33,046 nucleotides of DNA, from the NCBI RefSeq assembly GCF_003334815.1, contig NZ_QOWO01000041.1; one strand, 5' to 3'. The position numbers were made by a program, and so were the translations under genes. Position 1 is the first letter of the stretch. Every line of letters begins with the position of its first letter. This document shows positions 8,575-23,533 of this stretch, piece after piece. The stretch comes from Escherichia coli (GTDB taxonomy: Bacteria > Pseudomonadota > Gammaproteobacteria > Enterobacterales > Enterobacteriaceae). A model generated the notes under the pieces. It ran no database searches. It was not told where the DNA came from and saw only the letters and a list, made by a program, of their open reading frames with translations.

Positions 8575-8590
8575 GAGCAATTAACTATTT

Positions 8591-8795
<205 letters not shown>

Positions 8796-11251: not shown

Positions 11252-12685
11252 TTACAGCATGTTCCAGCCGATCAGCATATTCCACCACCACACGCCGAGG
11301 GTGATATGCACCAGGAAGGTTAATATCGTCAGTACCGCACCGACCAACCACCAGGATTTAATATCGTTATAACCCACGCCAAAGATGACCGGACCTGCCG
11401 CGCCGCCATAGTGAGTAACCATGCCGCCATAGGAGTTGGAGAACAACAGTGCCAGCGCGGTTAACATTAACGGTGCGCCGGAGACGTTCGCCAGCATGGC
11501 AAATACCGGTAACATAGCAACGATATAGGCACTACCGGAAGCGAAGAAATAACGCACGATAATGCTGAGGAAAATAATAACGAAGAAAGCAACGTTACCG
11601 TGACCATCAAATGCCAGGTTATTTTTAAAGACTTCAGCTAACCATTCGAAGAATTTAACTTTCGATAATAAGGAGCTTAAGCCGATAATACCGCCGTACC
11701 AGATTAAGGTATTCCAGCCGCCTTTATTTTTAACCACGTCTTCCCAGGTAACGATACCCAGCAGCAGCATGGTTGCCATAACAACGATTGCCACGGTGGA
11801 TTCATCAACCCCCAGAGACTTACTGAAAATCCAGCCCAGCAGCGCCAGCACAAAGACACCGAGCAGCATTTTTTCGCGGATTTTCATCGGTCCTAGTTCG
11901 GCAAGGCCCGCTTTAGCGATGGTTTTGTTATCCACCTTCTTAATTTCTGGTGGATACATGGTGTAAATCACCAGCGGGGTGACCAGCAGCATAATGATGC
12001 CCGGCAATCCGGCTGCCAGCGCCCATCCACCCCAGCTAATTTGCAGGTGCAGAATGTCGTTGATCATTTTCAGCGCCAGAATGTTCCCCGCCATTGCGGT
12101 AAAGAACATATAGCTGGTGGTTTTGGTGACCATGTAAATGGACATCATCAGGTAATGTCCGACACGACGCGGACTTTTTTCCGGTTCGGACCCCAAAGCC
12201 ACCGCCACGCTGTTGATGATCGGTAACACAATGCCGCCCGCACGCGCGGTGTTAGACGGTGTTGCCGGAGCCAGTACCAGATCGAGGAATACCGTAACGT
12301 AACCCAGACCCAGCGTGGTGTTACCGATTTTACCAATCAGCAGATAGGCAATACGTTTACCTAAACCGGTGGTCACAAATGCGGCGCTTAAGGTAAACGC
12401 CGAGAACACCAGCCAGGTGGTACCTGAAGAGTAACCGCTTAATACGGCGGTGGTTTTAAACGCACCGTCGGATAAGTTACCGACCACCACCATTGAGGCA
12501 GCAACGGCAATTAACAGTACGACAGGTTCCGGGAAAGGCTTGATAACCAGCCCCACAATGGCCGCCAGGTAAATACCAAAAAGCACCCACGCCAGTTCGC
12601 TTAATCCTGCCGGAGCTGGCATAAAACCAATAATACATGGGATCGCTAATATCAGAATTAGCTTCCATAACGATTTCTTATTCAT
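11252..12685 (-). CDS. ybhI: YbhI, DASS-family anion (di/tricarboxylate-type) transporter (477 aa)
   Basis: Highly hydrophobic multi-pass membrane protein; length and position match ybhI. Confidence 0.9.
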   Translation of the reverse strand: MNKKSLWKLILILAIPCIIGFMPAPAGLSELAWVLFGIYLAAIVGLVIKPFPEPVVLLIAVAASMVVVGNLSDGAFKTTAVLSGYSSGTTWLVFSAFTLSAAFVTTGLGKRIAYLLIGKIGNTTLGLGYVTVFLDLVLAPATPSNTARAGGIVLPIINSVAVALGSEPEKSPRRVGHYLMMSIYMVTKTTSYMFFTAMAGNILALKMINDILHLQISWGGWALAAGLPGIIMLLVTPLVIYTMYPPEIKKVDNKTIAKAGLAELGPMKIREKMLLGVFVLALLGWIFSKSLGVDESTVAIVVMATMLLLGIVTWEDVVKNKGGWNTLIWYGGIIGLSSLLSKVKFFEWLAEVFKNNLAFDGHGNVAFFVIIFLSIIVRYFFASGSAYIVAMLPVFAMLANVSGAPLMLTALALLFSNSYGGMVTHYGGAAGPVIFGVGYNDIKSWWLVGAVLTILTFLVHITLGVWWWNMLIGWNML

Positions 12686-13996: not shown

Positions 13997-14950
13997 ATGA
14001 AGCATGAATTATCAAGTATGAAGGCATTTGTCATACTGGCAGAGTCCAGTTCGTTTAACAATGCCGCTAAATTACTCAATATTACGCAACCTGCATTAAC
14101 GCGAAGAATAAAAAAGATGGAGGAAGATTTACATATTCAACTATTTGAGCGTACAACTCGCAAGGTTACGTTAACAAAAGCAGGAAAAAGGTTGCTCCCG
14201 GAGGCGCGGGAATTAATAAAGAAATTCGATGAAACGCTTTTTAATATTCGTGATATGAATGCTTATCATCGTGGTATGGTGACGTTAGCGTGTATTCCGA
14301 CCGCAGTATTTTATTTTTTACCGCTGGCAATCGGTAAATTTAATGAGCTGTATCCCAATATTAAAGTGCGGATTCTGGAACAAGGCACGAATAATTGCAT
14401 GGAATCGGTGCTGTGTAACGAATCAGACTTTGGCATAAACATGAACAACGTCACAAATTCATCCATTGATTTTACCCCACTGGTCAACGAGCCGTTCGTG
14501 CTGGCCTGTCGGCGTGACCATCCATTGGCCAAAAAGCAGCTTGTAGAATGGCAGGAGTTAGTGGGTTACAAAATGATTGGCGTACGCTCCTCCAGCGGCA
14601 ACCGACTGTTGATAGAACAACAGCTGGCCGACAAGCCCTGGAAGCTGGACTGGTTTTACGAAGTGCGTCATCTTTCGACGTCATTAGGACTGGTGGAGGC
14701 GGGACTGGGGATTTCGGCGCTTCCTGGCCTGGCAATGCCTCATGCGCCCTATTCTTCGATTATTGGTATCCCATTGGTGGAACCCGTTATACGTCGAACA
14801 TTGGGAATAATTCGCCGTAAAGATGCCGTACTTTCTCCAGCAGCAGAACGCTTTTTTGCCTTGCTGATTAATTTATGGACTGACGATAAAGACAATTTGT
14901 GGACCAATATCGTCGAACGCCAGAGACACGCGTTACAGGAGATAGGTTAA
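13997..14950 (+). CDS. ybhD: YbhD, LysR-family transcriptional regulator (317 aa)
   Basis: ORF 13934-14950 trimmed to ATG 13997 (MKHELSSMKAFVILAESSSFNNAAKLLNITQPALTRRIKKMEEDL..., N-terminal HTH) with GGAG RBS. Confidence 0.85.
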   Translation: MKHELSSMKAFVILAESSSFNNAAKLLNITQPALTRRIKKMEEDLHIQLFERTTRKVTLTKAGKRLLPEARELIKKFDETLFNIRDMNAYHRGMVTLACIPTAVFYFLPLAIGKFNELYPNIKVRILEQGTNNCMESVLCNESDFGINMNNVTNSSIDFTPLVNEPFVLACRRDHPLAKKQLVEWQELVGYKMIGVRSSSGNRLLIEQQLADKPWKLDWFYEVRHLSTSLGLVEAGLGISALPGLAMPHAPYSSIIGIPLVEPVIRRTLGIIRRKDAVLSPAAERFFALLINLWTDDKDNLWTNIVERQRHALQEIG

Positions 14951-20783: not shown

Positions 20784-22256
20784 ATGTCATCGTTGCAAAT
20801 TTTGCAAGGCACGTTTCGTCTTAGCGACACAAAAACGCTGCAATTGCCTCAGCTAACGTTAAACGCGGGTGATAGTTGGGCGTTTGTCGGTTCGAATGGA
20901 AGCGGGAAATCGGCCCTGGCCCGCGCGCTGGCGGGGGAACTTCCGCTTTTGAAAGGTGAACGGCAAAGCCAGTTTTCCCACATCACTCGTCTCTCCTTCG
21001 AGCAATTGCAAAAACTCGTCAGCGACGAATGGCAGCGGAATAACACCGATATGCTCGGCCCTGGCGAAGATGACACCGGACGCACTACGGCTGAGATCAT
21101 TCAGGATGAAGTAAAGGATGCACCGCGTTGCATGCAACTGGCGCAGCAGTTCGGTATTACCGCCCTCCTCGACCGACGCTTTAAATACCTTTCCACTGGC
21201 GAGACGCGAAAAACCCTGCTGTGTCAGGCGCTGATGTCGGAGCCTGACTTGTTGATTCTTGATGAGCCGTTCGATGGCCTGGATGTTGCCTCACGTCAGC
21301 AGCTGGCTGAGCGACTCGCCTCGTTACATCAGTCCGGTATTACTCTGGTACTGGTGCTCAATCGCTTCGATGAGATCCCGGAGTTTGTCCAGTTTGCTGG
21401 CGTGCTGGCGGATTGCACGTTAGCGGAAACTGGCGCTAAAGAGGAACTGCTCCAACAAGCACTCGTCGCGCAACTGGCGCATAGTGAACAGCTTGAAGGT
21501 GTGCAACTGCCGGAGCCGGATGAACCTTCAGCACGTCACGCCTTACCCGCCAACGAACCGCGCATTGTGCTGAACAATGGCGTGGTTTCTTATAACGATC
21601 GCCCCATTCTTAATAACCTTAGCTGGCAGGTGAATCCAGGCGAACACTGGCAAATTGTCGGGCCAAATGGTGCAGGAAAATCGACGTTATTAAGCCTGGT
21701 TACTGGCGATCATCCGCAAGGTTACAGCAACGATTTGACGCTTTTCGGACGACGTCGCGGCAGCGGCGAAACCATCTGGGATATCAAAAAGCATATCGGT
21801 TACGTCAGCAGTAGTTTGCATCTGGATTACCGGGTCAGCACTACCGTGCGTAATGTGATTCTTTCTGGCTATTTTGATTCGATTGGCATTTATCAGGCCG
21901 TTTCGGATCGCCAGCAAAAACTGGTGCAGCAGTGGCTGGATATTCTCGGCATTGATAAACGCACGGCTGACGCTCCGTTCCATAGTCTTTCCTGGGGACA
22001 GCAGCGTCTGGCGCTGATTGTCCGCGCACTGGTGAAACATCCGACGTTGCTTATTCTCGATGAACCACTACAGGGGCTTGATCCGCTGAATCGCCAGCTT
22101 ATCCGCCGTTTTGTTGATGTGCTGATTAGCGAAGGTGAAACGCAATTGTTGTTTGTTTCGCACCACGCTGAAGATGCGCCTGCCTGTATTACCCATCGTC
22201 TTGAGTTCGTGCCGGACGGTGGACTCTATCGCTATGTGCTGACAAAAATATATTGA
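20784..22256 (+). CDS. modF: ModF, ABC-type ATPase with two nucleotide-binding domains (490 aa)
   Basis: ORF 20772-22256 trimmed to ATG 20784 (MSSLQILQG...). Two Walker A motifs (GSNGSGKS, GPNGAGKS). Confidence 0.9.
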   Translation: MSSLQILQGTFRLSDTKTLQLPQLTLNAGDSWAFVGSNGSGKSALARALAGELPLLKGERQSQFSHITRLSFEQLQKLVSDEWQRNNTDMLGPGEDDTGRTTAEIIQDEVKDAPRCMQLAQQFGITALLDRRFKYLSTGETRKTLLCQALMSEPDLLILDEPFDGLDVASRQQLAERLASLHQSGITLVLVLNRFDEIPEFVQFAGVLADCTLAETGAKEELLQQALVAQLAHSEQLEGVQLPEPDEPSARHALPANEPRIVLNNGVVSYNDRPILNNLSWQVNPGEHWQIVGPNGAGKSTLLSLVTGDHPQGYSNDLTLFGRRRGSGETIWDIKKHIGYVSSSLHLDYRVSTTVRNVILSGYFDSIGIYQAVSDRQQKLVQQWLDILGIDKRTADAPFHSLSWGQQRLALIVRALVKHPTLLILDEPLQGLDPLNRQLIRRFVDVLISEGETQLLFVSHHAEDAPACITHRLEFVPDGGLYRYVLTKIY

Positions 22257-22422
22257 GTCGGTAGTGCTGACCTTGCCGGAGGCGGCCTTAGCGCCCTCTC
22301 CGGCCAACGGTTCGACGCATGCAGGCATGAAACCGCGTCTTTTTTCAGATAAAAAGCGCAATCATTCATAAACCCTCTGTTTTATAATCACTTAATCGCG
22401 CATAAAAAACGGCTAAATTCTT

Positions 22423-22438
22423 GTGTAAACGATTCCAC
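22423..22438. promoter_or_regulatory. gal external operator OE (GalR/GalS site)
   Basis: GTGTAAACGATTCCAC, upstream of the gal promoters. Confidence 0.7.
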
Positions 22439-22442
22439 TAAT

Positions 22443-22490
22443 TTATTCCATGTCACACTTTTCGCATCTTTGTTATGCTATGGTTATTTC
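22443..22490 (+). promoter_or_regulatory. gal P1/P2 overlapping promoters with CRP site
   Basis: CRP half-site TGTCACA at 22451-22457; overlapping -10 elements TATGCT / TATGGT at 22474-22484. Confidence 0.6.
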
Positions 22491-22516
22491 ATACCATAAG
22501 CCTAATGGAGCGAATT

Positions 22517-23533
22517 ATGAGAGTTCTGGTTACCGGTGGTAGCGGTTACATTGGAAGTCATACCTGTGTGCAATTACTGCAAAACGGTCATGATGTCATC
22601 ATTCTTGATAACCTCTGTAACAGTAAGCGCAGCGTACTGCCTGTTATCGAGCGTTTAGGCGGCAAACATCCAACGTTTGTTGAAGGCGATATTCGTAACG
22701 AAGCGTTGATGACCGAGATCCTGCACGATCACGCTATCGACACCGTGATCCACTTCGCCGGGCTGAAAGCCGTGGGCGAATCGGTACAAAAACCGCTGGA
22801 ATATTACGACAACAATGTCAACGGCACTCTGCGCCTGATTAGCGCCATGCGCGCCGCTAACGTCAAAAACTTTATTTTTAGCTCCTCCGCCACCGTTTAT
22901 GGCGATCAGCCCAAAATTCCATACGTTGAAAGCTTCCCGACCGGCACACCGCAAAGCCCTTACGGCAAAAGCAAGCTGATGGTGGAACAGATCCTCACCG
23001 ATCTGCAAAAAGCCCAGCCGGACTGGAGCATTGCCCTGCTGCGCTACTTCAACCCGGTTGGCGCGCATCCGTCGGGCGATATGGGCGAAGATCCGCAAGG
23101 CATTCCGAATAACCTGATGCCATACATCGCCCAGGTTGCTGTAGGCCGTCGCGACTCGCTGGCGATTTTTGGTAACGATTATCCGACCGAAGATGGTACT
23201 GGCGTACGCGATTACATCCACGTAATGGATCTGGCGGACGGTCACGTCGTGGCGATGGAAAAACTGGCGAACAAGCCAGGCGTACACATCTACAACCTCG
23301 GCGCTGGCGTAGGCAACAGCGTGCTGGACGTGGTTAATGCCTTCAGCAAAGCCTGCGGCAAACCGGTTAATTATCATTTTGCACCGCGTCGCGAGGGCGA
23401 CCTTCCGGCCTACTGGGCGGACGCCAGCAAAGCCGACCGTGAACTGAACTGGCGCGTAACGCGCACACTCGATGAAATGGCGCAGGACACCTGGCACTGG
23501 CAGTCACGCCATCCACAGGGATATCCCGATTAA
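22517..23533 (+). CDS. galE: UDP-glucose 4-epimerase (338 aa)
   Basis: ORF 22475-23533 trimmed to ATG 22517 (MRVLVTGGSGYIGSH..., Rossmann GxxGxxG). Catalytic YGKSK motif present. Confidence 0.93.
   Translation: MRVLVTGGSGYIGSHTCVQLLQNGHDVIILDNLCNSKRSVLPVIERLGGKHPTFVEGDIRNEALMTEILHDHAIDTVIHFAGLKAVGESVQKPLEYYDNNVNGTLRLISAMRAANVKNFIFSSSATVYGDQPKIPYVESFPTGTPQSPYGKSKLMVEQILTDLQKAQPDWSIALLRYFNPVGAHPSGDMGEDPQGIPNNLMPYIAQVAVGRRDSLAIFGNDYPTEDGTGVRDYIHVMDLADGHVVAMEKLANKPGVHIYNLGAGVGNSVLDVVNAFSKACGKPVNYHFAPRREGDLPAYWADASKADRELNWRVTRTLDEMAQDTWHWQSRHPQGYPD
22536..22551. promoter_or_regulatory. gal internal operator OI within galE
   Basis: GTGGTAGCGGTTACAT inside the first codons of galE. Confidence 0.65.

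Follow-up and report, generated by a model that had tools for sequence, protein, structure and literature searches.

The control region ahead of galE in an Escherichia coli contig matches the galETKM switch of K-12

The 129-bp block that precedes and enters galE in this Escherichia coli contig is almost certainly the canonical galETKM control region of the species, the same as that of K-12, and it is both real and ordinary. The block occupies positions 22423 to 22551 of the window, by which we mean the whole 33,046-nucleotide stretch of DNA that was analysed (contig NZ_QOWO01000041.1, assembly GCF_003334815.1). The system is already known, and nothing within the window itself is new. Alignment of the gal promoter region with K-12, the check proposed by the first-pass annotation, gave 100% identity and an unaltered operator spacing of 113 bp. 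Every element which that annotation had named is found where it was placed, with all coordinates exact. Its description of the regulatory architecture as complete holds for the DNA elements but is slightly overstated, since looping also needs HU, negative supercoiling and GalR/GalS, and the galR, galS and hupA/hupB genes lie outside the window.

The identity with E. coli K-12 MG1655 (NC_000913.3) is uninterrupted over 22294-22600, and the nearest difference, G22293 in place of A, lies 130 bp upstream of the external operator OE. On a larger scale, window positions 7226-32781 are the reverse complement of MG1655 807346-781791 with four mismatches, of which that at 7229 only marks the border of a prophage junction. 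Beyond that junction, 7230-32781 differs from MG1655 at 3 positions in 25.5 kb. The gene order modE-modF-galE-galT-galK-galM is that of the MG1655 annotation, and the galETKM sequence downstream of the control region is identical to that of MG1655. Of 5,426 complete E. coli genomes, 5,392 carry the control region in a single copy, each time at galE. The gal switch of the window is free of IS insertions, operator mutations and spacing changes, and judged by its sequence the switch of this strain is wild type. Protein binding, looping and promoter behaviour are inferred here from work published on K-12, given that the two sequences are identical.

The external GalR/GalS operator, OE (GTGTAAACGATTCCAC), spans 22423-22438, with its centre at 22430.5, or −60.5 from the P1 transcription start. 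The internal operator, OI (GTGGTAGCGGTTACAT), spans 22536-22551, with its centre at 22543.5, or +53.5, and overlaps galE codons 7-12. The centres are 113.0 bp apart. In K-12, OE and OI are likewise placed at −60.5 and +53.5, 113 bp or about 11 turns apart from centre to centre, and repression is functional at operator distances of 103, 113, 123 and 133 bp but fails at 108, 118 and 128 bp (PMC4693257). The first-pass annotation had proposed two GalR operators with the spacing needed for repressor looping, and the phrase is justified because the published working distances include 113 bp.

Taken singly, the two operators differ in how far they stand out from the surrounding DNA. The GalR operator consensus given in PMC5110547 is GTGNAANC.GNTTNCAC, from which OE departs at 0 positions and OI at 2 (positions 5 and 16). 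A search of the 33-kb window allowing at most 2 mismatches to GTGKAANCGNTTNCAC, a pattern slightly stricter than the published one, returned 7 strand-matches, where 1.31 were expected and none of 100 shuffles gave more than 6. OE is the sole perfect operator match in the 33 kb. Besides OI, two-mismatch matches occur at 12318-12333 and 14777-14792 (GTGTTACCGATTTTAC and GTGGAACCCGTTATAC); these sites are at chance level, and both are absent from the operator tables in the available portion of PMC5110547. OI alone is not significant because these two unrelated sites match equally well. The weight is carried instead by the pair of operators bracketing the promoter at 113 bp, together with the identity to K-12. 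OE maps to MG1655 792134-792149 and OI to 792021-792036; the same source tabulates both intervals as galE operators, and its ChIP-chip data show strong GalR binding in vivo, with a peak at MG1655 792029 that scores 78.1 (PMC5110547).

Between the operators lie two overlapping promoters, both on the plus strand and with their cores read from the sequence. The P2 core consists of an extended −10 TG at 22471-22472 and the −10 hexamer TATGCT at 22474-22479, while the P1 core consists of a TG at 22476-22477 and the hexamer TATGGT at 22479-22484. The two motifs, TGnTATGCT and TGnTATGGT, thus overlap with a 5-bp offset at 22471-22484. The published gal promoters are without a functional −35 and have the extended −10 elements −15T and −14G, the −12T of P1 doubles as the final base of the P2 −10 hexamer, and transcription starts at +1 for P1 and at −5A for P2 (PMC4693257). 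Arithmetic on the K-12-identical sequence places the P1 start (+1) at A22491 on the plus strand, the sole placement that fits the galE ATG at +27, OE at −60.5, OI at +53.5 and the cAMP-CRP activating site (AS) at −41.5 together. The published position of the P2 start (−5), also on the plus strand, corresponds to A22486. A generic sigma-70 promoter and terminator scan of 22100-22700 called no promoter or terminator. This outcome is expected because the scanner needs both hexamers and the gal promoters have no functional −35; the null was rejected as evidence against the promoters, since galP1 and galP2 are extended −10 promoters.

The activating site is a 22-bp element at 22439-22460 with its centre at 22449.5, or −41.5, the position published for the CRP activating site (PMC4693257). 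Its right half, TGTCACA at 22451-22457, is consensus-like and its left half is degenerate. The term CRP half-site used in the first-pass annotation is thus fair, in that the full 22-bp site is present and the right half alone resembles the consensus. The HU binding site, hbs, which would form the apex of the repression loop, has a predicted centre at 22496/22497 (+6.5), a coordinate taken only from the published position (PMC2475638, PMC5110547); HU binding is structure-specific and is without a sequence signature. When the whole window was scanned against Rfam, no RNA family was matched at or close to the control region.

Comparison with relatives shows how closely these elements are kept. 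One genome per species was scanned with a pattern for the GalE N-terminal peptide in which all synonymous positions were degenerate. Because the synonymous positions were left free, the sample is not biased toward conserved operators. The scan yielded at least 120 loci, mostly from Enterobacterales. In 106 distinct sequences among the matches listed, codons 7-11 (GGT GGT AGC GGT TAC), which fall within OI, have an entropy of 0.14-0.38 bits at their third positions. The third positions of the flanking codons range from 0.9 to 1.6 bits, with codons 6, 12 and 13 at 1.36-1.58 bits, again among the matches listed. Codon 13 encodes another glycine, yet its third position is free. Past the edges of OI, synonymous variation resumes within one codon.

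The upstream operator is kept as well. Among the matches listed, 116 loci have at least 150 nt of upstream sequence, and in 105 of these the best operator-like site agrees with at least 10 of 12 informative positions; the chance of such a site within the 244 positions searched is about 0.009. The site lies exactly 113 bp from OI in 74 of those 105 loci, among the matches listed, and the 74 span about 30 Enterobacteriaceae genus-level labels, including Escherichia, Salmonella, Citrobacter, Klebsiella and Enterobacter. An ungapped stack of this 113-bp class, comprising 73 distinct Enterobacteriaceae sequences among the matches listed, gives the entropy of each element. Mean column entropy is 0.01 bits in OI, 0.12 bits in OE, 0.20 bits in the CRP right half, 0.31 bits in the Shine-Dalgarno sequence, 0.35 bits in the −10 block and 0.75 bits in the CRP left half, compared with 0.8-0.9 bits in the spacer and leader and 1.77 bits in the 5' flank. 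The string TATGCTA is invariant throughout the 113-bp class, among the matches listed. At P1, −12T, −11A and −7T are kept among relatives and the middle TGG of the hexamer varies; the conserved bases agree with the published critical bases (PMC4693257). Within E. coli, the block is, on the evidence of sequence comparison, under purifying selection. Identity to the block is 99% or more in 5,089 of 5,392 genomes, with no genome under 95%, whereas the 129 bp next to it upstream reach 99% in 2,755 of 5,391 genomes and drop to 80-95% in 730.

The frozen codons also bear on a different account of OI, in which its invariance reflects the glycine motif of the Rossmann fold (GGSGYIG) and codon preference rather than operator constraint. 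OI does overlap this GxGxxG dinucleotide-binding motif, and the amino acids are invariant. The scan pattern, however, fixed amino acids alone, and the third positions of codons 7-11 are nearly invariant nonetheless, with codons 6, 12 and 13 free. A freeze that begins and stops with the operator, to within a codon, cannot be put down to coding constraint or codon bias. Outgroups without an upstream operator (Gilliamella and a Methylobacteriaceae MAG) use other codons there, for example GTGGTTGTGGATATAT, and GalR occupies OI in vivo in MG1655 (PMC5110547). The coding account is therefore highly improbable. Even less credence goes to the idea that in this strain the resemblance to operators is coincidental or the relic of a switch no longer active, although the window does hold two further two-mismatch matches to the consensus. 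Against it stand the identity to the experimentally characterised K-12 region, a number of operator matches above the shuffled expectation, a 113-bp spacing kept across about 30 genus-level labels among the matches listed, the purifying selection on the block indicated within E. coli, and a downstream galETKM that is the same as in MG1655. Both operators are best read as GalR operators of an ordinary gal switch.

The coding sequence itself raises one further alternative, which concerns where galE begins. The gene for UDP-glucose 4-epimerase (338 aa) starts at 22517, not at 22475, and runs to 23533 on the plus strand; it corresponds to MG1655 b0759 (792055..791039). Its ATG is at +27, as published (PMC4693257), and is preceded by a Shine-Dalgarno GGAG at 22507-22510, also on the plus strand and 6 nt before it, whose columns are conserved in relatives. 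The first-pass annotation had preferred 22517 over 22475 correctly, but the operators by themselves do not settle the choice, since OI is internal to both reading frames. An upstream ATG at 22475-22477, on the plus strand, is in frame and open to 22517, giving a 352-aa reading frame that could be the true galE or an N-terminally extended isoform, with the promoter elements as coding sequence; 62 of 74 close relatives, among the matches listed, likewise keep the extension free of stops. This upstream ATG is not a start codon. It falls in the P2 −10 hexamer TATGCT, where its A serves as −11A of P2, and in the extended −10 TG of P1. Both transcription starts, 22486 and 22491, lie downstream of it, by 11 and 16 nt, which leaves it off the gal mRNA. 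Nothing like GGAG precedes it. In a search of solved structures, the E. coli GalE chains (1udc, 1nah, 1xel and others) have 338 aa and begin with MRVLV, their residues 1-338 aligning to residues 15-352 of the long reading frame, and the RefSeq galE annotation is 1,017 nt long. Finally, the 42-nt extension carries in-frame stops in 12 of the 74 related loci and has no codon-like pattern of conservation, among the matches listed. A long galE is thus vanishingly improbable. The N-terminus expected of GalE translated from 22475 is MLWLFHTISLMERI, and the peptide MLWLFHTISLMER would mark the product of the long frame.

Carried over from K-12, the parts of the switch would act together as follows. 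The overlapping extended −10 promoters P1 (22491) and P2 (22486) would drive the operon, and cAMP-CRP bound at −41.5 would activate P1 and repress P2. A GalR dimer on OE alone would repress P1 and stimulate P2 through contact with the alpha-CTD of RNA polymerase. GalR dimers on both OE and OI, 113 bp or about 11 helical turns apart, would associate with the aid of HU near +6.5 on negatively supercoiled DNA. The resulting antiparallel loop, the repressosome, would silence both promoters until D-galactose releases GalR and lifts repression. Translation of galE begins at 22517 (+27).

Set beside the K-12 galETKM region, with its galP1/P2, OE, OI, AS and hbs and its GalR-HU repressosome, the window shows no difference within the regulatory block. 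The lac system offers a second comparison. LacI, a stable tetramer, and GalR, a dimer, belong to the same LacI/GalR repressor family. In gal, the operators lie to either side of the promoters without overlapping them, and there are two differentially regulated promoters. In the looping of lac O1/O2/O3 by LacI, as in gal, an upstream operator loops to an operator inside the first structural gene, and repression in both systems depends on helical phase, as is known for the family (PMC4693257). HU and negative supercoiling are required for gal looping by GalR but not for lac looping (PMC4693257).

Outside the Enterobacteriaceae, the gal regions vary in operator spacing. In Yersinia, Hafnia, Edwardsiella, Rahnella, Pectobacterium and Dickeya, OI is identical or nearly so and an OE-like dyad lies upstream. 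Many non-Enterobacteriaceae gal loci have a proximal spacing of 110-112 bp, as against 113 bp in E. coli. Rahnella, Hafnia, Edwardsiella, Rouxiella and Yersinia appear to have an extra operator-like dyad 209-233 bp from OI, which places it some 100 bp upstream of OE; the loci with this extra distal site, among the matches listed, are L008, L022, L045, L051, L080, L098 and L109. A distal site at 201-215 bp was the only one found in Pectobacterium, Dickeya, Brenneria, Lonsdalea, Samsonia, Symbiopectobacterium and one locus labelled Serratia (L015, L018, L031, L059, L062, L076, L096, L115 and L116 among the matches listed). Taken modulo 10, the spacing falls at 0-5 with a peak at 3 in 54 of 54 genus/distance pairs among the matches listed, pairs that are not phylogenetically independent. 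This clustering of sequence-derived spacings in half of the 10-bp cycle suggests helical phasing. Natural gal loops of 19-21 turns, or a three-operator ancestor of which E. coli kept the 113-bp pair, are tentative readings of these spacings that we consider somewhat doubtful.

One gal leader in the comparison is interrupted. In the K-12 strain RV308, an IS2 element splits the leader at about +5 of the P1 transcript (2737-4093 of locus L123, corresponding to about 22495 in the window) and is located between the gal promoters and galE. This insertion is presumably a classical polar mutation of the galOP::IS2 type.

The single-base difference from MG1655 nearest to the switch, G22293, lies in a GC-rich hairpin (GCCGGAGGCGGCCTTAGCGCCCTCTCCGGC) directly after the modF stop. 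In the predicted fold it sits in the 3' arm (CGC) of a small inner stem, where the A of MG1655 would probably leave a pair mismatched. The modF-galE segment 22255-22350 folds into a hairpin with an unremarkable z-score of −0.92, and several other E. coli genomes (H1-H5) are 100% identical to the window across 22293. The other two single-base differences beyond the prophage junction are A14135 (G in MG1655), which maps into ybhD, and C30491 (G in MG1655), which maps into zitB.

The left end of the window, 1-7244, is not K-12 DNA but what is left of a degraded lambdoid prophage, which is inserted at attB, with ybhB and ybhC on its two sides, and ends at attL. Positions 3161-7244 are 98% identical to lambda exo...xis-int-attP, and the prophage ends on the 15-bp att core TTAGTATAAAAAAGC at about 7230-7244. 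Positions 1-3160 are not lambda. They hold a 380-aa reading frame (591-1733) that is annotated as a porin (OmpC-like) in other E. coli and is accompanied by quuD/rusA-type genes. At least 80% of this segment is common to 22 of 5,426 complete E. coli genomes, the best match being 52F4 at 100%. An engineered lambda lysogen (DE3) or recombineering strain was considered and rejected: int is uninterrupted, the phage part is just 98% lambda, and the junction to the porin, quuD and rusA genes is as in natural strains.

Repeated and RNA-coding sequences account for further observations on either side of the operon. Tandem REP-type units of about 100 bp, 92% identical between the window and K-12 copies, lie at 8590-8784 in the ybhC-ybhJ intergenic region, with an Rfam match to naRNA4 (nucleoid-associated ncRNA) at 8643-8713 on the minus strand. 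At the right end, 32728-33046, tRNA-Lys(UUU) genes lie at 32764-32839 and from 32972 to the end of the window, and an RtT RNA match spans 32873-33040. Just before lysQ, the window is 156 bp shorter than MG1655 at a 54-bp repeated segment.

For annotation, the value of these results is that the galE start is fixed at 22517 and the 129-bp block can be labelled as the gal control region. To a system studied for about 50 years they add nothing scientifically, and all that is mildly new, the operator spacings outside the Enterobacteriaceae, comes from the comparison with other genomes and not from the window. The comparative by-products serve mainly as a clean positive control for the detection of regulatory sites by sequence comparison: synonymous positions that hardly vary beneath OI, an operator distance of exactly 113 bp kept in about 30 genus-level labels, and distal operator-like sites outside the family.
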